From Candidatus Parcubacteria bacterium (GTDB taxonomy: Bacteria > Patescibacteriota > Saccharimonadia > UBA4664 > JBIOIQ01), in contig OY970378.1 in NCBI GenBank assembly GCA_963718875.1, positions 947,691-1,011,690 of the forward strand: DNA of 64,000 bases. The letters are read 5' to 3'. Position numbers and translations under genes: made by a program. How positions within the stretch are numbered: the first letter of the stretch is position 1; the number at the start of each line of letters is the position of its first letter. Positions 241 to 63,730 of this stretch are shown here, piece after piece. Below the pieces are notes generated by a model. It ran no database searches. It was not told the origin of the DNA and saw nothing but the letters and a program-made list of their open reading frames with translations.

Positions 241-310
241 TGGTTTTTGAAGTCAGACTTTAATCTTTGGACTTGGGAAATCTCGATTTGAAGTCTGACT
301 TCTGATCTAG
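241..310. repeat. Family-A palindromic element (tttgaagtcagactttaatc ... gatttgaagtctgacttctgatc)
   Basis: Inverted copies of GAAGTCAGACTT/AAGTCTGACTTC; the same unit recurs at 787, 7962, 8604, 15362, 16025 and 41073. Confidence 0.8.
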
Positions 311-630
311 CTGGCGCTGCGGTTTTCAAGCTTGGCAATGCGAAAACCATGGTCTTTGGCATAATCCTTAACCACCACAACGTCGTCTTTGATCTCTGAA
401 AGTTCTTGATGGATCCCGTCTATCAGCATTGTGATCTTCTCAAATTGTTCGTTTACGCCGGTTATAATTGTTTCAACTGCATTATCAATTTTTGAATCAA
501 GCGCATTTAACCTCTGGCCATGCGCAGCGAACCGTGGTTCAACCACCTCGACCACCACAGCTTTAATTTGTTCTAAGTCTTCCTTGGTAAGAGACATTCT
601 TACTCCTTCTTTAGATTTATTGTATCTCAC
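307..630 (-). CDS. Small hypothetical coiled-coil protein; the likely true start is the Met at 597 (MSLTKEDLEQ...), which follows an AAGGAG ribosome-binding site
   Basis: ORF lies between two family-A repeats; the RBS aaggagtaagaATG was read from the sequence; no recognisable domain. Confidence 0.4.
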   Translation of the reverse strand: MRYNKSKEGVRMSLTKEDLEQIKAVVVEVVEPRFAAHGQRLNALDSKIDNAVETIITGVNEQFEKITMLIDGIHQELSEIKDDVVVVKDYAKDHGFRIAKLENRSAS

Positions 631-786: not shown

Positions 787-857
787 TGGTTTTTTTGAAG
801 TCAGACTTTAATCTTTGATGTTAGGTAACTGTATTTAAAGTCTGGCTTCTAGTCTGG
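787..857. repeat. Family-A palindromic element, directly abutting the family-C copy (composite C+A)
   Basis: tggtttttttgaagtcagactttaatc...aaagtctggcttctagtctgg. Confidence 0.8.
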
Positions 858-1358
858 TTATTTAACGACAAAGTTGACTAGTTTGCGCGGGACGGTAATA
901 GTTTTGACCATTGTTTTACCATCAAGATGCTTTTTGACAGACTCAACCTCCGCAGCGGACTTTTCCAACTCATCCTTGCCCACGTCTACGGCCGCTAGCA
1001 TAGTGCCGCGCAGCTTGCCATTGACCTGGATGGCAATCTCAATGATGTCGTCTTTAATTAACTCTGGATCATATTTGGGCCATGCAGCCACATGTACGCT
1101 CTCGGTTTCGCCCAATGCTTCTTGCCACAGCTCTTCGGCTAAGTGCGGCATGGCTGGAGCTAACATGAGGACTAATGTACGCACAGTTCGTTGCGCCAAT
1201 AAAGCGGCCTCAGGTTGCAAAAGTGATTTACGTATATCCGGCGCGTTCAAGAAGTTTACATATTCCATCAAGCTACTGACCATAGTATTAAAGTGCATAT
1301 CTTGAATATCTTCGTGGACTTTTTTCAAAGTTTTGTGAGTCATACGATCTACTGCCAC
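858..1358 (-). CDS. leuS: Leucyl-tRNA synthetase C-terminal fragment (anticodon-binding and C-terminal domain), separated from the main ORF by a frameshift
   Basis: Ends ...IQVNGKLRG...VPRKLVNFVVK, as bacterial LeuRS C-termini do; starts 2 nt away from the stop of the 840-aa LeuRS ORF but in a different frame. Confidence 0.8.
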   Translation of the reverse strand: MAVDRMTHKTLKKVHEDIQDMHFNTMVSSLMEYVNFLNAPDIRKSLLQPEAALLAQRTVRTLVLMLAPAMPHLAEELWQEALGETESVHVAAWPKYDPELIKDDIIEIAIQVNGKLRGTMLAAVDVGKDELEKSAAEVESVKKHLDGKTMVKTITVPRKLVNFVVK

Positions 1359-1359
1359 C

Positions 1360-3882
1360 TCAATGACCCCCTCGTTCCCACTTGGATTGCGAGGGAGCCT
1401 TGGTTTGGGAGTTTTGAATTAACTTATGCGCCAAGTCCCAAGTACGGTACGTAAAACGCCCTACGCCAGCTAAATGTTCCTCACTCCAGGCCATTTCTTG
1501 ATCATATGGTCCCATAAACATCTCGTACAATCGAAGTATATCTGCTCCATGCGTCGTGATTACGCCGTCTGGATTAATAACATTGCCGCGAGATTTGCTC
1601 ATCTTTTGATTGTCCGGCCCTAAAATCATGCCATGGCTTCGTCTCTTGGCATAAGGCTCGAGAGAGGGCACGAGTTTTTGATCATATAAAAATTTGTGCC
1701 AAAAGCGTGAATACAACAAATGAAGTGTCGTATGCTCCATTCCGCCGTTATAGAGATCAACCATCAACCAGTCTTGTAATTTGGACGTTGAAGCAAAAAC
1801 TTGATCATTGTTGGGGTCAATGTAGCGCAAATAGTACCAGCTAGAGCCAGCCCAGTTGGGCATGGTGTCTGTTTCTCGCTTAGCCGGACCATCACATTGA
1901 GGGCAAACCGTATTAACCCAATCGGTAATTGCCGCCAAGGGGCTTTCACCTGTTTTGGTGGGTTCATAATGTTCAACTTCAGGCAAAGTAAGAGGTAGTT
2001 GATCTTCCGGCACCGGCACGACTCCACACTTGGGACAATGAACCACCGGGATAGGTTCGCCCCAGTAATGCTGGCGACTAAAAATCCAATCGCGCAGTTT
2101 GTACTTGACTGCGTGTTTTGCGGACCCCGCTTTAAACAAATCTTCCACTATGGCTTGCTTTGCTTCGGATCCTAATAAACCGTCGTATTGGCCGGAATTA
2201 ATCAGTTCTCCTTCATCCGTAAGTGCGGTTTCTTTCCATAATTGCTGCCAGACAAATTTTTGGTGGTCAGGTACAAGCCTATCTAAAACTGCTTTTTGTT
2301 CGACCCAAACTAGAGTATGTTGCTTGGATTCGGCGTTGGGAATATTGCCTTGCTGGCTTAGATTGTCAACCTCGGCCATGATCACCATAGTAATGGCCTT
2401 GCGGTTTTGCTGCTTATGCGAGGCGCAGTAACGCGCTCCGGTAACCCAACGTAACTTGCGAACAATATTTATGTCCTGTAAGGCCGCTTCTTCGCGGATC
2501 TCATTTAAGGCGGCAGTTTCAGGTGTTTGCCCGTCTTCAATCCCTCCCATGATGGCAGTAGTTATGCCCTCAAGAGTACCGTGCCAATCAAGCAGGGCAA
2601 ATTTACCAGTGGACTTATCTTTAAGATGGACGATTACCGTGTCCCGAACGACTTCTTCGTACCTGGGTTGAGGTGGATTTTTGGTATCGTCCTCAATAGG
2701 CATGATTACCTGCTTAATTGGTAGGTCAAATTTTTTGGCAAACTCAAAGTCACGCTCATCGTGGGCAGGGACAGCCATAATGGCGCCCGTACCGTAACCC
2801 ATTAAAACGTAGTCGGCGATCCAAACTGGAAGTTCCTCTTTGGTAAGAGGGTTGATCGCCATTGCTCCGGTCCAGACGCCAGTTTTGGGCCGCTCCTGGT
2901 CTTGCCGCATTAACTCTGTCTCGGACTGGACGGTTTTGATATAGCTTTCAGTAACTGATTTTTGACCAGAGGTTGTGATGTCTTTTACTAGTGGATGTTC
3001 AGGCGCCAAGACTAAAAATGTAGCTCCGGCCAATGTGTCGGCACGAGTGGTGAAAACTTCAATATAAGAATTGTCATCCTGAACTCGATTCAGGATCTCT
3101 TGACTTAGTTTAAGAGATTCCGAATCCTGAGCGCTCGCATGGGCATGGTTCGTGCTCGCTTCCGGTCCGGAATGACAGATTGGAAATTTAACCGTCGCCC
3201 CCTCACTTCGACCGATCCAGTTAATTTGTTGCGTGGCCACACGAGGCAAGTAATCGACCGTTTTTAAGTCTTCAATCAGTCTATCAGCATAGGCTGTGAT
3301 TTTGAGTAACCATTGTTTGAGTAATTTTTTTTCGACTTCTGTGCCACAGCGCTCATGACGACCATTAATAACCTCTTCGTTGGCCAACCCAGTCTTACAA
3401 AATGGGCACCAATTAATGGCAATCTCGGCTTGGTAAGCAAGCCCGGCTTTAAGAAGTTGTAAAAAAATCCACTGGGTCCACTTGTAGTACTTAGGGTCAG
3501 TGGTATTAACCTCGCGCGACCAGTCGAAGCTTAGGCCCAAGCTTTTCATTTGGCGACGGAACGTGTCGACATTACGTTCGGTAGCGAGATGAGGGGCAAT
3601 CTTGTTTTTGATTGCATAGTTTTCTGTGGGCAATCCAAAAGCATCCCAGCCCATAGGATAGAGCACATTGAAACCTTGCATACGCTTGTGTCTGGCCATA
3701 ATATCCAGGGCAGTAAAGCTGCGGACATGTCCTACATGCAGCCCATCTCCCGAGGGATAAGGAAATTCTGCCAACAGGTAATATTTGGGCTTAGGATCAA
3801 AATCGACCGCTTGATAAAGCTTAGTGTCCGTCCAAACTTTTTGCCATTTGGGCTCAATTTTGCCTGGTTCGTATGGTTTCAT
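1360..3882 (-). CDS. leuS: Leucyl-tRNA synthetase main body (HVGH ... KMSKS) with an embedded Nudix/MutT-like domain and a repeat-derived insertion
   Basis: HVGHVRS and KMSKSRGN class-I motifs; CP1/editing region (TTRADTLAGATF, AVPAHDERDFEFAKKF); Nudix box GGIEDGQTPETAALNEIREEAAL at about aa 446-468. Confidence 0.9.
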   Translation of the reverse strand: MKPYEPGKIEPKWQKVWTDTKLYQAVDFDPKPKYYLLAEFPYPSGDGLHVGHVRSFTALDIMARHKRMQGFNVLYPMGWDAFGLPTENYAIKNKIAPHLATERNVDTFRRQMKSLGLSFDWSREVNTTDPKYYKWTQWIFLQLLKAGLAYQAEIAINWCPFCKTGLANEEVINGRHERCGTEVEKKLLKQWLLKITAYADRLIEDLKTVDYLPRVATQQINWIGRSEGATVKFPICHSGPEASTNHAHASAQDSESLKLSQEILNRVQDDNSYIEVFTTRADTLAGATFLVLAPEHPLVKDITTSGQKSVTESYIKTVQSETELMRQDQERPKTGVWTGAMAINPLTKEELPVWIADYVLMGYGTGAIMAVPAHDERDFEFAKKFDLPIKQVIMPIEDDTKNPPQPRYEEVVRDTVIVHLKDKSTGKFALLDWHGTLEGITTAIMGGIEDGQTPETAALNEIREEAALQDINIVRKLRWVTGARYCASHKQQNRKAITMVIMAEVDNLSQQGNIPNAESKQHTLVWVEQKAVLDRLVPDHQKFVWQQLWKETALTDEGELINSGQYDGLLGSEAKQAIVEDLFKAGSAKHAVKYKLRDWIFSRQHYWGEPIPVVHCPKCGVVPVPEDQLPLTLPEVEHYEPTKTGESPLAAITDWVNTVCPQCDGPAKRETDTMPNWAGSSWYYLRYIDPNNDQVFASTSKLQDWLMVDLYNGGMEHTTLHLLYSRFWHKFLYDQKLVPSLEPYAKRRSHGMILGPDNQKMSKSRGNVINPDGVITTHGADILRLYEMFMGPYDQEMAWSEEHLAGVGRFTYRTWDLAHKLIQNSQTKAPSQSKWERGGH
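3066..3176. repeat. Family-B/D-like palindromic element inserted in-frame inside leuS
   Basis: ttgtcatcctgaa..ttcaggatc followed by agattccgaatcctgagcgctcgc...cgcttccggtccggaatgac; compare the intergenic B copies ggattccctatccggagcgc...ccgatagggaatgac. It encodes the low-complexity LeuRS segment CHSGPEASTNHAHASAQDSESLKLSQEILNRVQDDNS. Confidence 0.6.
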
Positions 3883-3969: not shown

Positions 3970-4107
3970 GAGAACTTTTTTACCGGCAAACAGGAAGTAG
4001 GCAGGTTTGCTTATCCGTGACGGAACTCATGACGCTGAGACACGGTGTACTTTTGAGCTTATTTGTAGTATGGTAATGGTTCGAACCTTCGACAGATTGG
4101 ACGAATC

Positions 4108-4440
4108 ATGACACGTCAAGCAGTAAGGAACAACGACGGGCTTGACCAGATGCTTCACCACGTGGACTGGAGCGCAGCTCACGTCAGCAGGGAAATGCTG
4201 TGCAAGCTGATCGCCGTGGCCCTCGAGAGAGACTCCACTGACTCGGTTATGACCGCAAGCGTAATGCTGGCAATTGTCGCGCCGGTGGAAGGCTGTACAC
4301 CTGCAGATTGGCACGACAACCTCGGTTGGCTGCGCAAGACCCTGGCGATCGAGACGCCAGCACCAACCGGCCGGCACCGGGCGGGCGCGAGTGACGGGAC
4401 CAACCACGATGGCCGCAACGGTTCCTCTTGCGGGCACTAG
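4108..4440 (+). CDS. Hypothetical protein, first gene of a four-gene high-GC plus-strand islet
   Basis: About 60% GC versus about 45% background; the 4428 and 4630 starts have RBSs (aggag, gaggtga); minus-strand ORFs over the same span look like GC artefacts. Confidence 0.35.
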   Translation: MTRQAVRNNDGLDQMLHHVDWSAAHVSREMLCKLIAVALERDSTDSVMTASVMLAIVAPVEGCTPADWHDNLGWLRKTLAIETPAPTGRHRAGASDGTNHDGRNGSSCGH

Positions 4441-4613
4441 CACCAGGAGCTCTGATGGACTCCACTAGAGTTATCATCCCTGCTTGGTTTCCTGCGCCAG
4501 TTGGAGATGTTGACGAGCGGCCAGTTAGACCATCCCAGTGGGCCCCAGAGGTGATGGCTGAAGTGTTAGCCGAGGAGGCCGGAAGCCTCGTTACAACCAT
4601 TCCTCTGCCATGA
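4428..4613 (+). CDS. Hypothetical small protein (likely start MDSTRV at about 4455 after an aggag RBS)
   Basis: High-GC islet; RBS read from the sequence. Confidence 0.3.
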   Translation: MRALAPGALMDSTRVIIPAWFPAPVGDVDERPVRPSQWAPEVMAEVLAEEAGSLVTTIPLP

Positions 4614-4629
4614 CCTACAGAGGTGAGTA

Positions 4630-4878
4630 ATGCCCGCCATTGACACGCATCTGGACTTCCTGCCATTTTCCGTTGATTGGGAGCATACGGAGAGCCGTGC
4701 CAGAGTCGCTTTGGTGGTTCAAGCAGCTCTCATCTGCCCCCCGAGCGCCGTAAAAGCCCACTGCCAAACCTTGGCCGTAATGGCTCCTCTAATGGGCGAA
4801 CAGGGAACGGAAGGTTGGGAAGCCAACCTGGAGTGGCTGAAGCTGACCGATGAAGCTGTGAGCTCAAGTGCCTCTTGA
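4630..4878 (+). CDS. Hypothetical small protein
   Basis: gaggtgagtaATG ribosome-binding site; high-GC islet. Confidence 0.35.
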   Translation: MPAIDTHLDFLPFSVDWEHTESRARVALVVQAALICPPSAVKAHCQTLAVMAPLMGEQGTEGWEANLEWLKLTDEAVSSSAS

Positions 4879-4920
4879 CGGCAGCTCCGCCAACAATCCA
4901 CACCACACTGTGGCTCCTTT

Positions 4921-4982
4921 GAAAGCCACAAGCCCCACCAAGACGGCTCCACCAGCTGTTTTGGTGGGGCTTGTCTTTTATA
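4921..4982 (+). terminator. Rho-independent terminator (ccccaccaa...ttggtgggg hairpin plus T-run)
   Basis: caagccccaccaagacggctccaccagctgttttggtggggcttgtctttta. Confidence 0.6.
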
Positions 4983-5037
4983 AAAGTTGATCGTATAATA
5001 TTCCGCACCCGTACCGCCATAGAACAGGGAGCTCCAA

Positions 5038-5568
5038 ATGACCAGCACTATGACAGACGCCGCACGTGCCCAGCGACGGGCAGTTGCCGCCTCCACATTC
5101 CTTCATCCAGCACCTGGTGCTACGCGCCAAAAACTGACCTTCGCCGAGTGGAATGAAATGCTCGGCAGCACGGACGAGCCAGTCGGCACAGTCGATCCTA
5201 CTACCAAGATCGACTTTGGCGAGTGGGTGGGCGCAGCTACCGGCTGGATGGGATTCTTGGCCAACGACGTCTTGACGCATCTCATCCGACTGGGCATGAC
5301 GTCCACCGAATGGTTCGACGAGGCAGCAAGGATTTTCGTTGCCCAGAACATCAAGTCCGCGCAACTGGAGAAAAAGTCGGTTCAAGACTGGTGGGAGTAC
5401 TTGCGTCTGGCGGCAGACAAGTACAAGTCCAGCTTCGCGAACGGCGTTGGCGAAGAGCCCATCCCCCTCCACACCTTCCTCAACCGGATCCTGTCCACCG
5501 ACCTGAACGTTCAGGCGTGGTATACGCGGTTACGGGGTCTGGCCCCGGCATCTAGCACTGTAACGTAG
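5038..5568 (+). CDS. Hypothetical protein (176 aa), high-GC
   Basis: gggagctccaaATG ribosome-binding site; bracketed by two plus-strand terminators. Confidence 0.5.
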   Translation: MTSTMTDAARAQRRAVAASTFLHPAPGATRQKLTFAEWNEMLGSTDEPVGTVDPTTKIDFGEWVGAATGWMGFLANDVLTHLIRLGMTSTEWFDEAARIFVAQNIKSAQLEKKSVQDWWEYLRLAADKYKSSFANGVGEEPIPLHTFLNRILSTDLNVQAWYTRLRGLAPASSTVT

Positions 5569-5677
5569 TCGCCTACCGACCATATTCGCCGTTCTCCGGC
5601 GAACCCCTATTCAGCCAGGCAGACCCTTCCATTCAACCGTCCTGCGACCTCTCGACCGCAGCCCCATCAGAACAACC

Positions 5678-7937: not shown

Positions 7938-8033
7938 CCTTCGACCGACTCAGGCAATGATTGGTTTTTTGAAGTCCAACTTTAATCTTCATGGCTTTTG
8001 GCAATCGGGATTTGAAGTCAGACTTCTGATCAG
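7938..8033. repeat. Composite family-C half-site plus family-A element
   Basis: ccttcgaccgactcaggc followed by tggttttttgaagtccaactttaatc...gatttgaagtcagacttctgatcag. Confidence 0.8.
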
Positions 8034-8040
8034 TGTGAAA

Positions 8041-8575: not shown

Positions 8576-8705
8576 CAGCCTTCGACTATGCTCAGGCAAT
8601 AATTGATTTTTGAAGTCCGACTTTAATCTTAATAGCTTAGCAGTCTCGATTTGAAGTCGGACTTCTGATCTAGGTTTCATTTGAAGTCGGACTTCTGGTC
8701 TGGGT
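8576..8705. repeat. Composite family-C half-site plus an extended family-A element with an extra tandem A arm, abutting the murF stop codon
   Basis: cagccttcgactatgctcagg ... tgatttttgaagtccgactttaatc ... gatttgaagtcggacttctgatctaggtttcatttgaagtcggacttctggtctggg. Confidence 0.8.
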
Positions 8706-10274
8706 TCAGGCGAAGCTATCCGGCCAGTCATTCTGCAGCAACACCACGTCCCCCGCTTTGGTCAGTTTGGGCAACGCCAATAAAGCGCTTATTTCATCGG
8801 CGTAGGTCAACAACTGACCCTTAAAGTCGCCTTCTTTCAAACCAGTTTTGATATATTCCATGACAGACGTTTCAATCAATACCACCACCTCGATACCGGC
8901 CTCTGCGAGCAGGCGCCCAATTGTTTCATGTACTATCTTGGCACGATGGGCAGTTTCGGTGATTCCGGGGGTAACATAAAAGCGTTTGTGTCCCTTTAAG
9001 CTAGCTAAGAAGTTGATTGCTACCCTAGCCCCGTCAGGGTTGCCATTATAGGCATCGTCTATTGTAACCACACCGCTGCCGTCAGTGGATGGCTCCATGC
9101 GGTGTTCAAACGGTTTAGTAGCCGCCAGTCCTTTTTCGATATCGTCCTGCGATAATCCTAAATCTTTCGCTAGTATGGCTACGGCAGCCAATGGCCCAAC
9201 TTGGTGCACTCCTAATAATTGCGACTTAATATGAAGAGTCTCTTTGCCATGCTTCATTTCAAAGTTAGTTCCCTCAAGACCGGTTGAAACTTTGCCTACG
9301 CTCCAGTCGCCAACGCCTTTTGAGCTATAAACTGTGGCTTTGTATTGCTTAGCCCGCTCGGCAGCCAATGAGCTATCGCCGTTAACGTACAGGCTCACAT
9401 TTGTCATCTGACCTTTGACCCCAGATCGAGCCCGGGGCAGGCTATCTGACGCCACGGGCGAAAAACTAGGCTTTGATATCTCAGATTCGGTGCCATCTGG
9501 ATTCAAGGCCTGGTTGGTCTGATTCTGCAGCCAGTCACCCAGCTCATAAATGGTTGAGACTGTGGCGTCAAGTGAACGAAATTTGCTTAGGTGGGCTTCA
9601 TTTATACCGGTAATAACTCCAATATCAGGTTGAACCAAACGGCTGAGCTTAGTAATGTCACCTGGAAAATATTCACCCAGTTCAAAAATTAGGATCTCTT
9701 CGTCGCTTTTTAGGTTTTCGACAAAACGGCTAATCCCTGCCGGCGTGTTTAAATTTCCGGGGGTGGCAGCCACGGCTTTGGCAGTACTCAGTACCGTGAC
9801 TAGCATTTCTTTCATGGTGGTTTTGCCAAAGCTACCTGCAATGGCAATTTTGAAAGCCGGATGATCGGCTAACCGCTTGCTGGTGCGGGCGTCGCGGACC
9901 CTTTCCTGAGGTGTCAAAATGGCAATGCGAGCAATTATGGCCGCCAAGGCTAAACTATATGCCAATAAATAGGGCGCTAAAAGACAAATGATAATTACAG
10001 ACAGCGACCACCAAATTATTAACTTTTGGCTAATGGCAAAATACAGAAGCACCACAATGATGAGCCAAGCCAAGGCAATTTCGAGCCAAACAAACAGCAA
10101 AAAACCTTTGGCGGCGGCCGTCATATCCAGTTTTCGGACGCGGGCTACTTGCTTGAAGTTGCGAGTGCGATGAAACCAACTCAGGTAATCTTGGGGACGG
10201 TACTCACTTTGTTGCAACATGTAAACCAGTGACCTGACAAACTTTAGACTATAGCGGCTAAAAAAATTACGCAT
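8706..10274 (-). CDS. murF: Mur ligase (UDP-MurNAc-tripeptide--D-Ala-D-Ala ligase, MurF-like) with an unusual N-terminal transmembrane extension of about 110 aa
   Basis: AIAGSFGKTTMKEM ATP-binding motif and central/C-terminal Mur ligase domains; the N-terminus has two or three hydrophobic helices (LLFVWLEIALAWLIIVVLLYF..., IIWWSLSVIIICLLAPYLLAYSLALAAII). Confidence 0.8.
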   Translation of the reverse strand: MRNFFSRYSLKFVRSLVYMLQQSEYRPQDYLSWFHRTRNFKQVARVRKLDMTAAAKGFLLFVWLEIALAWLIIVVLLYFAISQKLIIWWSLSVIIICLLAPYLLAYSLALAAIIARIAILTPQERVRDARTSKRLADHPAFKIAIAGSFGKTTMKEMLVTVLSTAKAVAATPGNLNTPAGISRFVENLKSDEEILIFELGEYFPGDITKLSRLVQPDIGVITGINEAHLSKFRSLDATVSTIYELGDWLQNQTNQALNPDGTESEISKPSFSPVASDSLPRARSGVKGQMTNVSLYVNGDSSLAAERAKQYKATVYSSKGVGDWSVGKVSTGLEGTNFEMKHGKETLHIKSQLLGVHQVGPLAAVAILAKDLGLSQDDIEKGLAATKPFEHRMEPSTDGSGVVTIDDAYNGNPDGARVAINFLASLKGHKRFYVTPGITETAHRAKIVHETIGRLLAEAGIEVVVLIETSVMEYIKTGLKEGDFKGQLLTYADEISALLALPKLTKAGDVVLLQNDWPDSFA

Positions 10275-12090: not shown

Positions 12091-12230
12091 GTGTCCCCTC
12101 TTTATTATTTGGCTAACAGTTTACTTTTAAATCATGCAATATAGTTTGGATAATCATCCAATTATATTGAACTATTTCTTATAGACTTTGTGGTCCCCCA
12201 GACGAGTTAAGAGAAAATTTTATGGTGGAG

Positions 12231-14225: not shown

Positions 14226-14508
14226 CTGGTGAAGCTTAAGGAGATTGTGGCTTCGCCACCTCTCGGAGCCTGCCCCGGACTTGATCCGGGGGTGCTCGAC
14301 ATGAACAAACGATGTTTGTTCATGCTCTCCAGCTCCTCGTTCACCTGAACTCCAAGGGAGTTCTCACTCCCGCATCTCCTGGTGGAGCTTAAGGAGATTG
14401 TGGCTTCGCCACCTCCCTGTGGTGCTCGACATGAACAAACGATGTTTGTTCATGCTCTCCAGCTCCTCGTTCACCTGAACTCCAAGGGAGTTCTCACTCC
14501 CGCATCTC
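14226..14508. repeat. Tandem direct repeat (about 153 bp then 130 bp). Each unit starts with a tRNA-Ala 3'-end-like sequence (ctggtgaagct / ctggtggagct) and contains the hairpin catgaacaaac-gat-gtttgttcatg. It runs directly into tRNA-Ala(CGC)
   Basis: Units 14226-14378 and 14379-14508 are near-identical apart from one roughly 23-bp indel; the ORF-track ORFs 14364..14570 and 14382..14615 are artefacts that span the tRNA. Confidence 0.8.
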
Positions 14509-14509
14509 C

Positions 14510-14585
14510 TGGTGGAGCTGGGGAGATTCGAACTCCCTACCTCTGCAATGCGAATGCAGCGCTCTACCAAGTGAGCTACAGCCCC
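14510..14585 (-). tRNA. tRNA-Ala (anticodon CGC), CCA encoded
   Basis: Reverse complement is GGGGCTGTAGCTCACTTGGTAGAGCGCTGCATTCGCATTGCAGAGGTAGGGAGTTCGAATCTCCCCAGCTCCACCA; G3:U70 pair. Confidence 0.9.
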
Positions 14586-14626: not shown

Positions 14627-14833
14627 TCAGTTTTCAGTTTCAGGAGTTTCGGGATTTTCTTGTTTGGGTTCAGTAGCCTCAAGGCGCTGAGACTGCTCTC
14701 TTAGTCTGTCTGCTTCATCGGCTATTTGGCTTAGCCTCTCCTGGTGGGCTTGATCAAGCATCTGACTGATTTCATCCCTCCCCACCTGGGCATTGGGATT
14801 TCCACTTGGATCATTTTCAATACTCATAACCAC
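14627..14833 (-). CDS. Small acidic hypothetical protein (68 aa) downstream of obg
   Basis: ORF only; overlaps the obg stop by a few nt. Confidence 0.25.
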   Translation of the reverse strand: MVMSIENDPSGNPNAQVGRDEISQMLDQAHQERLSQIADEADRLREQSQRLEATEPKQENPETPETEN

Positions 14834-16392
14834 TCCATTTCATTAGTACCGATTCTTATAATATCACCTGGCTCGACTCCATGCTTAATAAGCTCTTTGC
14901 CAACGCCTGTTTTGCGCAAAATGTCGCGCATACGCTCCACAGCATCTTGGTTGTCCCAGTCAGTACGACGGCCATGGCCTTCAATGTTGCCGCCCATCAC
15001 CCGCCAAGAGCCATCCGGTTCTTGTTCTAATTTCCATAAATTTGGAAAATCCATTTGGTCAATAACGGCTTTAGGCTCGGCCTCGGCGGCGGCTTTTCGC
15101 GCCTCTCGTGCCACCATCACTAACTGCGCCGTTCGACGTAACAAAACATCGAGACCCCGGTGAGCTACTGCTGATATGGCGAAAATACTAGTCTTGTCAT
15201 CCTCGACAGAAAGGTCACTCTCATCCACATGATTATTGGCCTTGTCGACCGCTTCTGATCGGGGATCCAGTTGACTAGGTTCCCTATCCGGAGCGAGGTT
15301 GTCTAATTTATGGTTAGTCTCGTCTTCCGATAGGGAATGACGTTTGAGGATGGTTTGTTCGTCTGGATTTGAAATCTGACTTCTGGAGATTACCGATGCT
15401 AGTTTTTCCATTTGACTTTTTAATTCCTCAGCCGTAACTGTTTCGATCTTGGTTAGCACTACCAGTTGCGGACGCTGTGTAAGGTCAACACTGTACGAAG
15501 TTAGCTCGTTTATTATAGTCAGGTAGTCGCGTTCAATGTCGTTTGAGTCAACGCTAATAAGGTGTAGTATTACCGCCGTGCGCTCGATGTGCCGTAAAAA
15601 TTCATCACCTAAGCCTTTGCCTTCGCTGGCTCCTTCAATTAGGCCCGGAATATCGGCTACTAAAAAAGTGTTTTGCTCAAAGTCGACGACACCCAGGTTT
15701 GGCACCAAGGTGGTGAACGGGTAGTCGGCTATTTCTGGCTTGGCGTTACTAATGACGGACAGGAGTGTGGACTTTCCCGCGTTTGGCAATCCTACCAGTC
15801 CAACGTCTGCCACTAGTTTAAGCTCCAAGGCAACGCGAAGTTTTTCGCCCGGCTCGCCTTTTTCCGCTAAATGCGGGGTTTGGCGGACGGAAGATATAAA
15901 GTGTGCATTACCAAACCCGCCGCGGCCACCTTTGGCCACAACCACTTGTTGGCCATCGTCGGTAAGATCGGCCAATACCTTAGCATCGTGAGTCGTGATC
16001 GGAGAGTTGTGAGTTGTCCTTCTATCTGGATTAGAAGTCAGACTTACATCTTTGATGCTTGTAGGACCTGGATTAGAAGTCTGACTTCTAGCCTGGGGCA
16101 TTTCATAAATAACTGTACCTACCGGCACTCTAATAATCATGTCCTGACCACTTTTACCTGCCTTGCGGTTGCCACCACCTGGAGCGCCGTCTTCAGCCTC
16201 TACTTTGCGGTTAGTGCGGTATTTGCTTAAAGTATTTTGGTTGTGGCTTGATTCAAATATAATGCTGCCACCACGGCCGCCATCGCCGCCATCGGCTCCG
16301 CCTTTGGCGCGGTATTTTTCGTGACGAAAGCCCATCTTGCCATCGCCGCCTTTGCCCGCCCGTAATTCGATTTCAGCTTTATCAGTAAACAT
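14824..16392 (-). CDS. obg: GTPase Obg/CgtA, expanded to 522 aa by three in-frame repeat-element insertions
   Basis: Obg fold N-terminus (GGDGGRGGSIIFE), G1 motif GLPNAGKSTLL, C-terminal OCT/TGS-like domain; the extra segments map exactly onto the repeat copies at 15251-15387 and 16025-16096. Confidence 0.9.
   Translation of the reverse strand: MFTDKAEIELRAGKGGDGKMGFRHEKYRAKGGADGGDGGRGGSIIFESSHNQNTLSKYRTNRKVEAEDGAPGGGNRKAGKSGQDMIIRVPVGTVIYEMPQARSQTSNPGPTSIKDVSLTSNPDRRTTHNSPITTHDAKVLADLTDDGQQVVVAKGGRGGFGNAHFISSVRQTPHLAEKGEPGEKLRVALELKLVADVGLVGLPNAGKSTLLSVISNAKPEIADYPFTTLVPNLGVVDFEQNTFLVADIPGLIEGASEGKGLGDEFLRHIERTAVILHLISVDSNDIERDYLTIINELTSYSVDLTQRPQLVVLTKIETVTAEELKSQMEKLASVISRSQISNPDEQTILKRHSLSEDETNHKLDNLAPDREPSQLDPRSEAVDKANNHVDESDLSVEDDKTSIFAISAVAHRGLDVLLRRTAQLVMVAREARKAAAEAEPKAVIDQMDFPNLWKLEQEPDGSWRVMGGNIEGHGRRTDWDNQDAVERMRDILRKTGVGKELIKHGVEPGDIIRIGTNEMEWL
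15251..15342. repeat. Family-B element inside obg (gcttctgatcggggatccag ... ggttccctatccggagcg ... ccgatagggaatgacg)
   Basis: Matches the intergenic B copies at 26516, 32388, 34994, 36237 and 51378. Confidence 0.75.
15362..15387. repeat. Family-A half element inside obg (tctggatttgaaatctgacttctgga)
   Basis: A-family core. Confidence 0.6.
16025..16096. repeat. Full family-A element inside obg (tctggattagaagtcagacttacatc...ctggattagaagtctgacttctagcctgg)
   Basis: Encodes the extra Obg segment QARSQTSNPGPTSIKDVSLTSNPDRRTT between GTVIYE and the KGGRGGFGN region. Confidence 0.8.
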
Positions 16393-26456: not shown

Positions 26457-26515
26457 ACGGCGTCGTCCTCAATAGAAAGGCTAGTTTCAAGTTTTATTTT
26501 TTTAAGTGAATTAAC

Positions 26516-26590
26516 CGCTTCTGATCGGAGATCCAGCCGATTTCCTGCCGTGAGCGCTCCTCTCTCGCTTCCGATAGGGAACAATGTGGG
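26516..26590. repeat. Family-B element upstream of ftsA
   Basis: ccgcttctgatcggagatccag...gcgctcctctctcgcttccgatagggaac. Confidence 0.75.
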
Positions 26591-26939
26591 AACTGAAGCT
26601 CGAAGACCGATCTCCCAAGTGGGCAAAATTCGTGCTTGGAGTTTGGGCATTAGAGCTTGTTTGATCATTGCTTGTTGCTTTGTTATTGCTTAGTATTGTA
26701 CCTCTTATGCTACGTCAAGTAAAATTGACATTTTACACTTAAAATGATCAAAATAAGGTACATCTGGCCGCTCGGGCTGGACTCACATAAGGAGGCCGAG
26801 ATGGCCATTGATCAAGCGCTTCAACTCGGCGACGTCATGACGTCGCTTTGGGGTATGCGCCACCTGGCGTTTTATTTAGCTGAGGACATCGGGCCCGACA
26901 GTCGACCGGTACTGGATGGTCAAATCTTCCTGTAAGAGT

Positions 26940-32294: not shown

Positions 32295-32387
32295 CCGCGT
32301 ACTTATGCGGATGCCGTCTAATCAAGGGACGGTGGGCCTCAAGGCCTGCCGTCCCTGACGCTTTTTACAAGTTACCTACTTTATTTC

Positions 32388-32431
32388 TGGATCCCCTATC
32401 CGGAGCGCTATGCTTCCGATAGGGGACGACA
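32388..32431. repeat. Family-B element
   Basis: ctggatcccctatccggagcgctatgcttccgataggggacgac. Confidence 0.8.
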
Positions 32432-32444
32432 AAAATGTGTATTT

Positions 32445-32858
32445 TTATGGTAGCAAGTGATGGGTCTGCAAGAAGCGCACCAAGTTAGGATAAAGCTTAG
32501 ATTTAATGACATCGGGGCTAAACCAATCCGAATGTTCTTCGCCACGACGAGTGTATTTTATGGGGCTAGCTAAAAATATTGTTAACGCAATGGCTTCTTT
32601 AGTAATAGGATGGGCGTAACGGAATTCTCCTAGAGACTTTTCAATCCGCACTTCCCAGCCACTCTCCTCCAGGGTTTCGCGAGCGGCAGTTTCCTCAAGC
32701 GTTTCACCAACTTCGGCGTGGCCCTTGGGCAAGCTCCAATAGACATACCGGGAATCTTTCGATAGTAGCATGCGCCCATGAGTGTCAATTACTACGCAGC
32801 CGGCTTTCTTGGTTTCTCCAGCTTCATTTAATACTGGAATTTGTTCTGGATTGGACAA
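32445..32858 (-). CDS. NUDIX hydrolase
   Basis: Nudix box GHAEVGETLEETAARETLEESGW. Confidence 0.85.
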   Translation of the reverse strand: MSNPEQIPVLNEAGETKKAGCVVIDTHGRMLLSKDSRYVYWSLPKGHAEVGETLEETAARETLEESGWEVRIEKSLGEFRYAHPITKEAIALTIFLASPIKYTRRGEEHSDWFSPDVIKSKLYPNLVRFLQTHHLLP

Positions 32859-34906: not shown

Positions 34907-34993
34907 GACGACTATTGTACCCTAGAAAGTGGTTTTTTTGAACCTGTGCGCTCAATACCCAACCTCAAACTGTCATCCTCGATCTGAGCGTCG

Positions 34994-35060
34994 GCTGGAT
35001 TCCCTATCCGGAGCACCAAACTAGGCAATGGTGGAGTTTGGCTACCGATAGGGAATGACG
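34994..35060. repeat. Family-B element (alaS-mnmA intergenic)
   Basis: ctggattccctatccggagcaccaaactaggcaatggtggagtttggctaccgatagggaatgacgg. Confidence 0.8.
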
Positions 35061-35133
35061 GATGTTTGTCTTGTGGCTGACGATTGAATAATCTCATGAG
35101 ACTGCTTTATCGCAAACGCTCTTCGCAGCGACG

Positions 35134-36186
35134 CTAGGCGATAATTCCGCCGCCGACTACGCGTGTGCCATCGTAAATGACGGCTGATTGGCCCGGAGTG
35201 ATGGCGCGGTCGGTGCGATCCATATTAATATGAAATCCGTCATCGCTCTGGGTAAGTTCACAACCAATGAGCGGGGCCCGATAGCGTGTTCTAACATGAT
35301 AGCGCCCAGGATGAGGTGAGCCATTGATCCAATGTTGGTCTGTTATATCAAATTGGTTCGATAGCAAGGTTAGGTCTGATGGGTCGTCGGTAACTGTAAC
35401 GGTGTTCGCCCTCATATTTTTACGGATGACATAAAACGGTTTACCGCCCCCGACGCGTAAGCCATGGCGTTGGCCGATAGTATAAAATATGGCGCCTTCG
35501 TGGGTGCCTAGTGTTTTACCTCTTTTGTCGACAATGTCTCCGGGAAACGTACTAACGTACTGGCGCAAAAAGTCCCGTAATCCAACTTCTCCTACGAAAC
35601 AAAGACCTTGTGAATCTGGCTTGTTGGCCGTCGGCAAGCCAAACTCTTCGGCAAGTTCGCGAATCTTAGGCTTGGTATATTCCCCCACCGGCATAAGAGT
35701 TTTTTGTAATGCGCTAGCCGAAACGCGATGCAGAAAGTAGGTTTGATCTTTGGTCGTGTCGATGGCGGAATGGAGCTCGTCACCATTTAATACTTGTGCG
35801 TAGTGACCGGTGGCAATTTTGTCGGCTCCATCAGCAAAAGCCGCATCCAAAAACAGTTTAAACTTAATTTCTTGGTTACACATAATATCGGGGTTTGGTG
35901 TCCGCCCAGCTTGGTATTCAATAACCATATAATCGACAACTTTTTGCTTATACTGATCTTGAAAGTCATATGTTTTCAAGGGGATGTCTAAAACGGCTGC
36001 CACTGCTTTGGCGCTTGCAAGATCTTCTTTCCAGGGGCACTCAACACCGGCCACATCCTGGGTCCAGTTTTGCATATATACTCCAGTTACATCATAGCTC
36101 TGTTGTTGCAACAAGGCTGCCGCCACAGAGCTATCTACGCCGCCGCTTAAACCAACGAATACTTTTTTGACATCATCTTTGATCAT
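35134..36186 (-). CDS. mnmA: tRNA-specific 2-thiouridylase MnmA
   Basis: VGLSGGVDSSVAA PP-loop; 350 aa. Confidence 0.9.
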   Translation of the reverse strand: MIKDDVKKVFVGLSGGVDSSVAAALLQQQSYDVTGVYMQNWTQDVAGVECPWKEDLASAKAVAAVLDIPLKTYDFQDQYKQKVVDYMVIEYQAGRTPNPDIMCNQEIKFKLFLDAAFADGADKIATGHYAQVLNGDELHSAIDTTKDQTYFLHRVSASALQKTLMPVGEYTKPKIRELAEEFGLPTANKPDSQGLCFVGEVGLRDFLRQYVSTFPGDIVDKRGKTLGTHEGAIFYTIGQRHGLRVGGGKPFYVIRKNMRANTVTVTDDPSDLTLLSNQFDITDQHWINGSPHPGRYHVRTRYRAPLIGCELTQSDDGFHINMDRTDRAITPGQSAVIYDGTRVVGGGIIA

Positions 36187-36236
36187 TACGGAATATTACT
36201 GGGTGAGGGGTTAAATGACAAGCTATTCGTGTTTTG

Positions 36237-36345
36237 CCTGGATCCCCTATCCGGAGCGCTCCTGTCTCGCTTCCGATAGGGGATGACAAGGGGGAGGGGT
36301 TGAACCTAGCTTCCAATAAGGGGCGACAGTGGGGAAGGGTTGGCG
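36237..36345. repeat. Family-B element plus a partial second copy
   Basis: ctggatcccctatccggagcgctcctgtctcgcttccgataggggatgacaaggggg... then cttccaataaggggcgacagtggggaaggg. Confidence 0.8.
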
Positions 36346-39924: not shown

Positions 39925-40596
39925 ATGACAAGACATTCAAAAATTATAAACTTCTCCTTATCGCCCCAACAATATGACGAATTGGATAGCTTAGCCGTTG
40001 CTAGCGGACGTAATCGTAGCGAACTGATGCGGAGTATTATTAGTGCTTCGCTGCAAGGTATGAAACAAAGGGATGTGGGATCGAATACAATTTTTAGAGA
40101 AAATAATGCGGACATAGCTAGTATGTTAAAAGATTTTTGGCTAGCCCGTACTAGCTCGCCTTTAGAAATAAAGGTAGCGGGTTTAATTATTGCCGTTAAC
40201 GATGAGGGTCGGGTTTTAATTGGCAAGCGCCATCAGACCGATCCTAACGTGCCAAACCTGACCTGGTCTTTTCCTGGAAGTCGCTTACAAACTTTGGACT
40301 TTCAGAAAGAGTTAACCAAGAGCTTCCATGAACGCACCGGTTTACATGTAAACATTAATAAAGTAGTAGCTGCTCGTGTAATTCCCGAAAGCGGCCAAAA
40401 CGGCGCACAAGTTGTTGCCTTGTATGCACATGGTCCCGTCCAAGGGAACCAGCACTTTACCGCTCAAGCCCCTTATTCGGAACTCAAGTGGGTCAAGCCT
40501 TTGGATGTATTCAAGTATTTTACAAGCTCAACTACCGACGAAGTCACCGCTTTTTTAAATAGTTTGGACAGCGCTTCAGACTTTGATCCCAAATAA
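39925..40596 (+). CDS. Fusion of a ribbon-helix-helix (CopG/Arc-like) DNA-binding domain with a degenerate Nudix-fold domain
   Basis: N-terminal INFSLSPQQYDELDSLAVASGRNRSELMRSII; the C-terminal Nudix-like fold (GSRLQTLDFQKELTKSFHERTGL) lacks the catalytic REx2EE. Confidence 0.55.
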   Translation: MTRHSKIINFSLSPQQYDELDSLAVASGRNRSELMRSIISASLQGMKQRDVGSNTIFRENNADIASMLKDFWLARTSSPLEIKVAGLIIAVNDEGRVLIGKRHQTDPNVPNLTWSFPGSRLQTLDFQKELTKSFHERTGLHVNINKVVAARVIPESGQNGAQVVALYAHGPVQGNQHFTAQAPYSELKWVKPLDVFKYFTSSTTDEVTAFLNSLDSASDFDPK

Positions 40597-41451
40597 CTCT
40601 GCCGCATTGCGGCTCGTGGCATTCCCGAGAGTATTGAATGATTCCCCTCTTAACTGTGCTAAAAACTCGGCAGTAAATTTAGCATTTGCCGGTTCATTCA
40701 CTTTTCCTCGTCTTGGCACTGGGGTTAAAAACGGGCAGTCTGTTTCTAGTACTAGGTTCTGTAACGGAACAGCTTTTGCAGCTGCCAGCTGTACCTCGTC
40801 CTTGGTAAAAGTCATGATGCCATTAAGCGCTATGAGGAAACCCCGCTCAACAGCTTTTTTCATATTAGCCGTTGTGCTGCTAAAACAGTGTACTATGCCA
40901 CGCAGTCCTGGATACTCGTCCACAATTCTAAAAAAATCATCAAAAGCATCGTCGCCTGTGCCTGCGGCTATCGATGGAGCTGAGGGTCGTACATGCCACA
41001 CCATCGGTTTATTGTACTCCAGGGCAAGTTCAATTTGAATTCGAAAAGCCTGCTCCTGCCATTGGCGGGTGGCAGAAGTCAAACTTTTGATCTTAGTCTG
41101 TGGGTAATCTGGATTTGAAGTCTGACTTTGATCTGGTCGGCCCTTCTCTAGTCGATAATAGTCTAAACCGCACTCACCAATTGCAACCACCTTAGGATAT
41201 GATAATAGCCTCCTAAAGGTTACTGGCCAGGTAGCATTATTTGCAATGCTTGCGTCTTCGGGGTGTAAGCCTACTGTGGCATAAACTTCTTGGTATTTGT
41301 TGGTTACCTCCACAGCTTCAACACTATCAGCCTCGTTCGTGCCCACGTTCACGATTACATTAATGCCAGCAACATGAGCATTCTCTACTACTTCATCAAT
41401 CCGGTTTTTAAGCCCTTCATGGTGCAGATGGGCGTGAGTGTCGATCAACAA
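40576..41451 (-). CDS. tatD: TatD-family metal-dependent DNase, with an in-frame family-A insertion
   Basis: MLIDTHAHL, IGECGLDYY and hydrolase motifs; extra segment KGRPDQSQTSNPDYPQTKIKSLTSA. Confidence 0.85.
   Translation of the reverse strand: MLIDTHAHLHHEGLKNRIDEVVENAHVAGINVIVNVGTNEADSVEAVEVTNKYQEVYATVGLHPEDASIANNATWPVTFRRLLSYPKVVAIGECGLDYYRLEKGRPDQSQTSNPDYPQTKIKSLTSATRQWQEQAFRIQIELALEYNKPMVWHVRPSAPSIAAGTGDDAFDDFFRIVDEYPGLRGIVHCFSSTTANMKKAVERGFLIALNGIMTFTKDEVQLAAAKAVPLQNLVLETDCPFLTPVPRRGKVNEPANAKFTAEFLAQLRGESFNTLGNATSRNAAELFGIKV
41073..41137. repeat. Family-A element inside tatD
   Basis: gaagtcaaacttttgatcttagtctgtgggtaatctggatttgaagtctgactttgatctgg. Confidence 0.8.
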
Positions 41452-44995: not shown

Positions 44996-45008
44996 CCCAG
45001 CCCAACCA

Positions 45009-45066
45009 TGTCATTCCCTATAGGAAGTGCCGCTACTGCGAAACGCTCCTGATAGGGAATCCAGGG
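45009..45066. repeat. Family-B element in inverted orientation
   Basis: tgtcattccctataggaagtgccgctactgcgaaacgctcctgatagggaatccagg. Confidence 0.75.
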
Positions 45067-51114: not shown

Positions 51115-51377
51115 AAAAGCTGATCCGAGAGTGGCGGCAATTATGCCGCCGACGATTATTAACTTTGCCTTAGTGTTAGCGTGCCTCCAGGCAGCTAATC
51201 GAATCCGAATAAATGTACTTAAAATAGAAGCCTCTATGGTTATCTGTGGGGCTTTTATGTTAAGTTTGTGTTTTTTGACTAGTAAAGTTTAACGTACTTA
51301 TGCTTAAGTACAGTTTTTATTGTATATCGACAGATTTGGTCTGTCAAATTGAGTGAGTTTTATCGCTTATTTTCTTT

Positions 51378-51445
51378 CTGGATTCCCTATCCTGAGCGCC
51401 AAGCTAGGCAATAGTTGAGCTTGTCTTTCCGGTAGGGAATGACAA
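51378..51445. repeat. Family-B element
   Basis: ctggattccctatcctgagcgccaagctaggcaatagttgagcttgtctttccggtagggaatgacaag. Confidence 0.8.
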
Positions 51446-51499
51446 GTAAAGGTTCGGGATTTAAGGCTCAGATTTTGATCATAAACGTTTTCGGGTCTG

Positions 51500-62888: not shown

Positions 62889-62963
62889 GCTTGTTACTTC
62901 GGAGGGCGGGGAAGTGTTCCCGCCCTCCGACTACTTTCAACCGTTATTATAAATTGATTAAAA

Positions 62964-63010
62964 CACGAAAGCCGCCCAGCAGGACGATTTTCGCGTCCTA
63001 CTGAACGGCC
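62964..63010 (-). repeat. 3'-flanking hairpin element (copy 1), located immediately after the WhiB-like stop codon
   Basis: cacgaaagccgcccagcaggacgattttcgcgtcctactgaacggccgc; a second copy at 63684-63730 carries compensatory stem changes (ggacg/cgtcc to ggaca/tgtcc). Confidence 0.6.
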
Positions 63011-63663
63011 GCTTCCTCCAGATCAGTCCTTAACTGCCTAGCCAACCGGTTTGCTCGAGCTATGGTTCCGAATGAGTCACGGTATTGTTCTGCAGACCTG
63101 CAAAAGCCCTGGGCGTGGAGGCTGTCTAGACCCGGCGAGCCCACCGAACCGCCCACATAATCCTGAAGCGTTACTAAGTCGGCTAACAGACCTCGCTGCT
63201 CATCAGATACAGGCTCTGGCGCTTGAACAGGAGGGGGAGTTGATACAAGCGGAGCATCAGTTGTTACAACCACAGCTGCAGCAGGTTCCTTTGCCTCGTT
63301 CTTTCGCGGCCGGCCGCGGGGACGCTTGGTGGCTTGGACTTTGCCCTTGTAGAAATACCGGCCACCCCATACACCAGCAGGTTCACGACGGGCCAGTGCA
63401 TCTGTAAAACATGCTTCCTTTACAGGGCATTCTCCGCAAAAAGCTTTGGCGCGGGCGATGTCGTCCAGTTGTTCGGAAAAAAACAGGGCGACGAGGTGTC
63501 CCGTGCCGTCATTGCATCTGGCGTAACTCCATAGGTCAAGCTCTAGTTCTGTACTGTCGATTGCTGACGTAACTGGAATCACCCCCTCTACGATCTCAAG
63601 GAAACTGCTGACGTTACCATTATTGACCCTTGGACTTATATCGTCAATTAATTGAAAGTCCAT
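62998..63663 (-). CDS. WhiB-like (Wbl) Fe-S transcription factor with an AT-hook and long terminal extensions
   Basis: Four-Cys pattern ARC...AFCGECPVKEAC plus GVWGG; AT-hook KRPRGRPRK directly after it. Confidence 0.7.
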   Translation of the reverse strand: MDFQLIDDISPRVNNGNVSSFLEIVEGVIPVTSAIDSTELELDLWSYARCNDGTGHLVALFFSEQLDDIARAKAFCGECPVKEACFTDALARREPAGVWGGRYFYKGKVQATKRPRGRPRKNEAKEPAAAVVVTTDAPLVSTPPPVQAPEPVSDEQRGLLADLVTLQDYVGGSVGSPGLDSLHAQGFCRSAEQYRDSFGTIARANRLARQLRTDLEEAAVQ

Positions 63664-63683
63664 ACTTAAATTTAGTTTTAAAG

Positions 63684-63730
63684 CACGAAAGCCGCCCAGA
63701 TGGACAACTTACGTGTCCGACTGAACGGCG
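63684..63730 (-). repeat. 3'-flanking hairpin element (copy 2), immediately after the stop of the 63749.. ORF
   Basis: cacgaaagccgcccagatggacaacttacgtgtccgactgaacggcggg. Confidence 0.6.

Follow-up and report, generated by a model that had tools for sequence, protein, structure and literature searches.

In-frame palindromic repeats of two families in the obg GTPase gene of a Saccharimonadia bacterium

The Rickettsia palindromic elements (RPEs; Ogata et al. 2000; summarised in PMC10969869 and PMC3733652) have as their hallmark the presence of palindromic repeats in frame within housekeeping genes (PMC10969869). A second group of short palindromes comprises the repetitive extragenic palindromic (REP) sequences and REPINs, with their REP-associated tyrosine transposases, named RAYT or TnpA-REP (Nunvar 2010; Bertels and Rainey 2011, PMC3116915; Ton-Hoang 2012; Di Nocera 2013, PMC3733652; Quentin 2018, PMC6006769). 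REP copies flanking the RAYT gene are the classical arrangement (PMC3116915, PMC3733652), and REPs that lie within genes and encode 20-30 residues, in some cases two of them in one gene, are on record for Opitutus terrae, R. conorii and Thauera (PMC3733652). [quoted passage not shown] Here we describe a 64,000-nucleotide stretch of contig OY970378.1, from a bacterium of the class Saccharimonadia, which will be called the window. Within its obg gene, coding for a conserved and essential GTPase of ribosome assembly, dispersed palindromic repeats of two families, A and B, are inserted in frame between conserved Obg blocks. An earlier note on this DNA, written from the sequence alone, had pointed to such repeats in obg, and its claims are taken up below together with the results that bear on them.

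The obg gene (positions 14824..16392, minus strand) is an intact ORF of 522 amino acids, identified by Pfam, PDB, AlphaFold2 and Foldseek. Its product is an Obg/CgtA GTPase composed of an Obg fold, a G domain and an OCT domain, with conserved motifs. It matched the Pfam families GTP1_OBG (8.6e-51), MMR_HSR1 (8.4e-25) and DUF1967 (1.8e-16), and its sequence matches in the PDB were the Obg proteins 1UDX (3e-85) and 1LNZ (6.5e-84). Alignment with its homologs showed that the invariant Obg residues and the G motifs are all present. The closest database relatives are mostly about 420 amino acids long, and those bearing a name belong to Candidatus Saccharimonadales or Saccharimonadia, in agreement with the earlier guess of a genome resembling those of the candidate phyla radiation (CPR).

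The extra length of the protein was located in an alignment of 117 sequences (the 522-residue protein and 116 homologs), in which two intervals were measured. The median length is 421 amino acids, so that the protein studied here is 101 residues longer, and the whole excess is confined to site 1 (aa 98-136) and site 2 (aa 336-400). Between GTVIYE and LADL there are 42 residues, versus 4 in 100 of the 117 sequences, and the stretch from the end of the G domain to IFAISA has 72, versus 8-9 in most sequences. The 38 and 64 extra residues at the two sites thus account for the entire excess, which amounts to about 100 residues relative to close relatives and not to the 120-190 that had been estimated from the sequence alone. 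The positions proposed for the inserts, after GTVIYE and between the G domain and the C-terminal domain, lie between conserved Obg blocks as had been stated, and the reading frame is kept over the 522 residues, all inserts being in frame and free of stop codons.

A repeat search of the window recovered both families. To assign the inserts, nhmmer profiles of the two families were built exclusively from copies lying outside obg, and the 64-kb window was scanned with them. At site 1, a family A doublet (16025..16099, plus strand) contains two GAAGTC-N-GACTTC units 42 nt apart and encodes aa 98-123 (PQARSQTSNPGPTSIKDVSLTSNPD). The profile matched positions 16031-16097 over the full length of the model (E=3.4e-11), and pairing between the two cores gives a hairpin of 14 bp (z=-3.55). 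Site 2 is tiled almost exactly by three further units. The first is a single family A unit (15361..15385, plus strand; nhmmer E=2.2e-4) encoding aa 336-344 (SRSQISNPD) in the frame used by the site-1 doublet. It was also found with a 24-mer of family A allowing up to 3 mismatches, for which shuffling gave a chance expectation of 0.00; on its own it gives no hairpin signal (z=+0.25). After a spacer of 5 residues follows the family B copy B1 (15273..15345, plus strand, antisense to obg; E=1.5e-8), which encodes aa 350-374 (KRHSLSEDETNHKLDNLAPDREPSQ), spans positions 7-76 of the family B model and folds with z=-2.57. The last unit, B2 (15193..15271, minus strand, sense to obg; E=4.5e-3), codes for aa 374-400 (QLDPRSEAVDKANNHVDESDLSVEDDK). 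In its left arm, CTGGATCCCCGATCAGAAGCGGT, it shares 96% identity with the copy at 26514-26536, and its hairpin is partly decayed (z=-1.46). The peptide stretches encoded by the inserts include SQTSNPGPTSIK and LDPRSEAVDK. The earlier note had described three units in obg, their segments coinciding with the repeats. Independent profile matches bear out the two families and the family A segments, whereas the single B segment, placed at 15251-15342, consists of B1 plus the left arm of B2, so that obg holds four units.

The unit of family A, (T)CTGGATTTGAAGTCNGACTTCTGAT, is 24 nt long and centred on the perfect palindrome GAAGTC-N-GACTTC; the window contains 12 such units at 7 loci. They are arranged as a single unit at site 2 of obg, as pairs about 40 nt apart at most loci, and as a triplet at 8606-8705. 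The doublets are 70-75 nt long, and their two cores pair into hairpins of 12-14 bp with z values of -3.5 to -4.9. All 7 loci are on the plus strand, with the neighbouring genes on the minus strand; three are intragenic and two abut stop codons (792-859 and 8606-8705). Apart from those in obg and tatD, doublets were found on the plus strand at 243..314, near the window edge (nhmmer 3.9e-22; hairpin z=-4.87), and at 792..859, abutting the stop codon of an ORF for the anticodon domain of leucyl-tRNA synthetase (LeuRS; 858..1358, minus strand; nhmmer 8.1e-17). A third doublet at 7964..8037 (plus strand; 6.2e-20) overlaps only a 117-aa ORF without Pfam match and is probably extragenic. The triplet (8606..8705, plus strand; 2.3e-20 and 1.4e-5; z=-4.71) has its end at the stop codon of a gene for a Mur ligase (8706..10274, minus strand; Pfam Mur_ligase).

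Family B is a hairpin in which CTGGATCCCCTATCCGGAGCG is followed by a loop of 5-30 nt and by CGCTTCCGATAGGGGATGAC, the inverted arms being about 20 nt long and the copies 55-80 nt. Of the copies outside obg, eight in all, one has the opposite orientation; intergenic copies fold with z values of -3.3 to -3.9. On the plus strand, an inverted B arm and a B copy (26514..26592; nhmmer 1.1e-11) lie upstream of an ftsA-like gene (Pfam FtsA), a copy at 32381..32438 (2.7e-14) is directly downstream of a NUDIX gene (32445..32858, minus strand), and one at 34990..35067 (1.4e-20; z=-3.85) lies between alaS and mnmA. A copy with a partial second right arm (36232..36329; 3.2e-16; z=-3.31) is located between mnmA and a CvpA/CAP gene, and another (51372..51451; 4.5e-20) directly downstream of a uvrD/pcrA-like helicase gene; the oppositely oriented, minus-strand copy is intergenic (45006..45065; 1.1e-7). 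The gene with B copies on both sides (35134..36186) was considered as a transposase and rejected, Pfam identifying it as mnmA. An Rfam scan of the window gave only two tRNAs and no match for the repeats, and no IS element was found in the window.

That there are two families is confirmed, but their supposed unrelatedness is not, since they may be related: both begin with the hexamer CTGGAT, present at the 5' end of A units 15362, 16025, 16067 and 41108 and of B copies 32387, 34995, 36238 and 51378. CTGG moreover flanks 4 of the 7 family A loci on both sides. The shared CTGG/CTGGAT may be a common cleavage signal or target tag for one enzyme, and where CTGG borders an A copy on both sides it could represent a duplication, the target or a part of the element.

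Two other genes of the window carry copies in frame. In tatD (40576..41451, minus strand; Pfam TatD_DNase 5.8e-66) a family A doublet (41069..41140, plus strand; nhmmer 4.1e-17) encodes aa 104-128 (GRPDQSQTSNPDYPQTKIKSLTSAT). It is read as QSQTSNPD...SLTSAT, in the frame of the obg peptide RSQTSNPG...SLTSNPD, and residues 101-129 of the product are omitted from its alignment with T. maritima TatD (1J6O). In leuS (1360..3882, minus strand) a family B copy (3112..3180, plus strand; 1.5e-17) encodes aa 235-257 in frame, between the catalytic core (Pfam tRNA-synt_1, aa 12-221) and the LeuRS editing domain (aa 266-402); it is read in the same frame as B1 of obg (RHSLSEDETNH versus CHSGPEASTNH for B1). 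The leuS gene itself looks split, with an 840-aa ORF (1360..3882) and the part from the anticodon-binding domain onward in another frame (858..1358), the frame changing at 1358/1360. A NUDIX match, unusual for a LeuRS, was also obtained in the 840-aa part (aa 442-544; E=1.7e-6, above the Pfam cut-off).

An AlphaFold2 model computed from the 117-sequence alignment had a mean pLDDT of 82, with the Obg fold, G and OCT domains predicted confidently and with pLDDT values of 46-63 at aa ~100-135 and 341-400. The first low-confidence segment lies between the strands 93-97 and 138-143, the second between the helix 321-340 and the strand 403-405. The best structural matches in Foldseek were Obg proteins, led by 1UDX (5e-38). 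The inserts are thus placed in low-confidence loops of a confident core, and no secondary-structure element of the core is interrupted in the model, the invariant residues being kept. About 100 probably disordered residues would be added by the inserts.

Four insertions are many for a single gene, and obg might be a decaying pseudogene or a redundant copy, with its frame open by chance and the repeats lying in dispensable DNA. The apparent split of leuS at 1358/1360 also makes some gene decay or an assembly error possible. However, the obg ORF is intact, with its invariant residues kept, a confident predicted core and all inserts in frame and free of stop codons. The Obg core is 80-81% identical to that of relatives, and in the core codon positions 1 and 2 are 84-88% identical and position 3 is saturated at 45%. 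This far greater conservation of the first two positions indicates purifying selection on obg, and we therefore consider a pseudogene highly improbable.

The Obg relatives differ in what they carry at the two sites. Neighbour-joining of the Obg core gave the tree (((P0002,P0003),P0001),P0004),(P0005,P0006), the P numbers denoting Obg sequences. Site 1 is short in P0003 to P0006, and among the relatives compared the family A doublet is found there only in the window. Site 1 of P0002 and P0011 contains in-frame tandem heptamer repeats (AAGGTCA/ATGGTCA; AGAGTCA four times and CTACCAG/TTACCAG four times), located at 330-480 of L001 and at about 10290-10400 of L122, L numbers denoting genome stretches. 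L002 has in addition a heptamer array of the TGACCAAT type, at 2370-2400, downstream of obg. In the position of B2 at site 2, a near-perfect hairpin of family B is present in P0003 (L002, 1520-1593; z=-4.07). P0005 has a shorter B-like hairpin at site 2, and P0002, P0004 and P0006 have none. Since the same two sites hold different repeats in different relatives, they appear to be recurrent landing or tolerance sites. The inserts had been predicted to be lineage-specific indels. They are indeed absent from most homologs, but the position of B2 is shared with P0003, and P0005 has a B-like hairpin. Orthologs carrying the segments without a matching repeat family had been named as evidence against insertion; the segment of P0003 resembles this case only superficially, as it is itself a well-preserved copy of family B. 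The 562-aa homolog P0007 was set aside as a repeat carrier, its extra length being an internal duplication in the G domain. This duplication, in a 197-kb ENA contig, is in tandem, comprises ~140 residues at the junction of Obg fold and G domain, and is either an assembly artefact or real.

The left arm of B2 is identical to that of P0003 at 24 of 27 nt, and the flanking synonymous sites of obg are saturated. This likeness could result from separate recent insertions into a site that is tolerant or preferred, from conversion by other copies (such as that at 26514-26536, 96% identical) keeping an old insertion similar, or from selection on the hairpin. The last of these leads to the possibility that the inserts have been retained for a function, as hairpins of the obg mRNA acting on translation or stability, as binding sites for host proteins, or as new surface loops. 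The conserved B2 arm, set against the 45% third-position identity of the core, would agree with it, as would the near-perfect hairpin of P0003, the obg A doublet which still folds (z=-3.55), and the B-type hairpins occupying the site-2 linker in 3 of 6 close relatives. Yet copies of the two families are dispersed over unrelated genes and intergenic DNA, the inserts are missing from P0002, which is the sister of P0003, and from about 100 further homologs, B2 of the window has partly decayed and the single A unit gives no hairpin signal. The arm conservation is moreover equally well explained by recent independent insertion or by conversion from the arm at 26514-26536. Retention of the inserts as a whole for function is thus unlikely in our view, although selection on the hairpin, and not on the peptide, may maintain some intragenic copies, the arms of B2 being conserved where synonymous sites are saturated.

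The core of family A was then searched in other genomes, with one genome per species and requiring two A cores 15-45 nt apart. The search yielded at least 118 genome stretches with paired cores, where by our own arithmetic (22 specified bases, 31 spacings, 1.2e12 positions) about 2 would be expected by chance. Among the matches listed, the hosts are mostly Patescibacteria, together with Ignavibacteriales, Bacteroidota, Chloroflexota, Cyanobacteria and Omnitrophota. The bases flanking the core vary by genome and usually lengthen the palindrome (TTG|CAA, ATT|AAT, TCG|CGA), which fits a conserved hairpin tip on a variable stem. Family B is absent from the 118 stretches listed.

Clustering of the ORFs in the paired-core stretches gave one dominant family, a protein of ~235 amino acids encoded in 14 loci among the matches listed. 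It belongs to Pfam Y1_Tnp (IS200-like HUH tyrosine transposases; E down to 2.7e-10), its sole NCBIfam match is 'REP-associated tyrosine transposase', under the cut-off of that model, and it has no sequence match in the PDB. This is a very large family: two database searches gave 4,440 and 6,444 clusters. In seven of the matches listed (L045, L051, L059, L064, L086, L099 and L004) the gene has A cores at both ends, at a distance of no more than 80 nt; examples are L059 2217-3092, L064 737-1637 and L099 6846-7517. L099 is from Ignavibacteriales, and L089 is from a cultured strain of Bacteroidota, Flavilitoribacter nigricans. As the core flanks Y1_Tnp genes elsewhere and occurs as hairpin doublets, we class family A as a REP/REPIN-type element. 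Four of the RAYT-like genes (L004 ~4779, L051 ~1246, L059 ~2505 and L086 ~3862) contain one REP core ~200-270 nt into the ORF, read as (S/N)(L/I)EVGL where other members of the family have a gap. The transposase gene would thus seem to contain, in frame, a copy of its own element.

Other housekeeping genes also contain the core. Among the matches listed, 26 paired cores lie well inside ORFs of at least 200 aa, and all eight of those ORFs that were run through Pfam are conserved genes, from other Patescibacteria: fmt (in two genomes, at different positions), gatB, atpG, uvrC, mnmA, truB and a D-Ala-D-Ala carboxypeptidase gene. In-frame core doublets in other Patescibacteria are located at L018 3871-3911, L100 442-494, L019 4733-4776, L034 5555-5594, L054 1696-1734, L088 7575-7614, L021 6754-6806 and L022 788-826. 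The peptides encoded are GSQTSN..SLTS, KSDF..KSDF or EVGL..SPTS, corresponding to the three frames of the palindrome, and GSQTSN..SLTS, the frame used in obg, is often found. None of the frames of the core contains a stop codon, save for GAA GTC TGA when the central base is T, so that most insertions are automatically open.

Quite probably, then, obg has been struck at least four times by two families of hairpin repeats, which survived at two permissive sites, family A being of REP type and mobilised by a RAYT. Survival would depend on insert lengths that are multiples of three, on frames without stop codons and on two places permissive in structure. These are, after GTVIYE, the tip of a beta-hairpin belonging to the N-terminal Obg fold, and the short linker from the G domain to the C-terminal OCT domain. 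Translation of the inserts would most likely yield about 100 residues, hydrophilic and disordered, with the GTPase remaining functional. Because the same core flanks RAYT-like Y1 genes elsewhere, family A would most likely have been moved by a RAYT-like HUH Y1 transposase, through single-strand cut-and-paste or copy. By analogy with these loci we infer that such mobilisation by RAYT took place in the source genome. Family B is a second hairpin element, with inverted arms of ~20 nt and a variable loop.

Several observations weigh against this explanation. No credible RAYT match was obtained in the 64-kb window by tblastn with 14 RAYT-like proteins. For family B, a scan of metagenomes gave only one weak single-copy match (L121), and no mobiliser was found for this family. 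The classical REP tags GTAG/CGTC are absent from family A. Lastly, the rest of the site-1 insert (15985-16023, minus strand), encoding the 13 residues aa 124-136 (RRTTHNSPITTHD), matches no repeat family of the window, where a 19-mer of it is unique. This segment is absent from 100 of the 117 homologs, and a AGAGTTGTGAGT-like string resembling it occurs in opposite orientation in the site-1 insert of P0002.

These 13 unmatched residues, and the tandem heptamers at site 1 of P0002 and P0011, which are typical products of slippage, could point to another origin of the extra segments, by local slippage or expansion of low-complexity sequence, with the repeat likeness coincidental or with the intergenic copies derived from obg. 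However, profiles built without obg gave 3e-11 and 1.5e-8, the element boundaries coincide with the indels, and the same elements occur in tatD, in leuS, in 13 other places of the window and in other genomes. About 90 of the 102 extra residues contradict a local origin, which as a general explanation is scarcely credible; nt 15985-16023 could still fit it. Removal of the inserts in the manner of an intron or intein was also considered and rejected, as they match no RNA family, contain no intein motifs and are far too short.

The insertion of repeats into obg can be compared with the systems described above. Judged by features alone, the RPEs are similar in that they are short dispersed palindromes lying between genes and in frame in unrelated housekeeping genes, with a family-specific peptide and a preserved fold, several families occurring together in one small genome of a host-dependent bacterium. 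They differ in size, being about 100-150 bp long, compared with units of 24 nt (A) or 55-80 nt (B). They differ further in host, which is here a member of the Saccharimonadia (CPR) and not Rickettsia, and in that a transposase partner of family A can be identified in other genomes. To our knowledge, the classical RPEs are without such a partner. The RPE signature seen in the earlier note stands for the in-frame repeats between conserved blocks, in tatD and leuS as well as in obg, but family A is better classed as a REP doublet of the RAYT-associated kind.

Like REPs and REPINs, family A consists of short imperfect palindromes present as singletons, doublets and clusters, its doublets fold into a longer hairpin, and elsewhere its core lies on both sides of a Y1_Tnp gene. 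It differs in having CTGG in place of the GTAG/CGTC tag and in that its 13-nt core is common to several phyla, whereas REPs are described as species-specific (PMC6006769); the associated protein, of ~235 aa, scores under the NCBIfam cut-off for RAYT. As to the MITEs, the arms of ~20 nt of family B correspond to terminal inverted repeats, a role played in family A by the palindromic cores. As intragenic REPs and RPEs have already been reported, the kind of event is known; the departures from the textbook are the lack of GTAG/CGTC tags, one 13-nt core across phyla and the density of insertions in one essential gene. In a limited literature search we found no report of such in-frame repeats in CPR bacteria, no paper containing the 13-mer or 11-mer core other than in unrelated primers, and none linking RAYT to Patescibacteria.

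Some further features of the window were recorded. Downstream of tRNA-Ala(CGC) (14510-14585, minus strand), two to three tandem copies of a 130-153-nt unit lie within 14226-14585. The units 14286-14389 and 14416-14519 are 98% identical, and each begins with TGGTGGAGC, which resembles a tRNA 3' end and is also present twice beside tRNA-Ala(GGC), at 12223 and 12307. These units may be the remnant of an integration at tRNA genes. A 52-nt repeat containing a hairpin (62958-63009 and 63678-63729, 85% identical) brackets a WhiB-domain gene (62998..63663, minus strand). The region 4000-5600 has a G+C content of 0.556 versus about 0.48 and overlapping ORFs on both strands; these ORFs have no Pfam match and the region has no Rfam match.

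The obg gene of this bacterium indicates that selfish hairpin repeats can repeatedly enter an essential, conserved GTPase of an ultrasmall CPR genome without destroying it, and it pinpoints two structurally permissive sites in Obg. As a tentative extension, for which we would claim rather less than even chances, GAAGTC-N-GACTTC and the ~235-aa Y1 transposase could form one ancient pair of the REP/RAYT type. Its core, kept across phyla, would systematically decorate housekeeping proteins of Patescibacteria (Obg, TatD, Fmt, GatB, AtpG, UvrC, MnmA and TruB) with in-frame peptides, and would be a general, hitherto undescribed source of lineage-specific insertions in the CPR. A cross-phylum REP core lying in frame in CPR housekeeping genes would explain part of the unusual insertions of CPR proteins, and the core together with the Y1 enzyme would offer a tractable enzyme-substrate pair for the mobilisation of REPs outside Proteobacteria.

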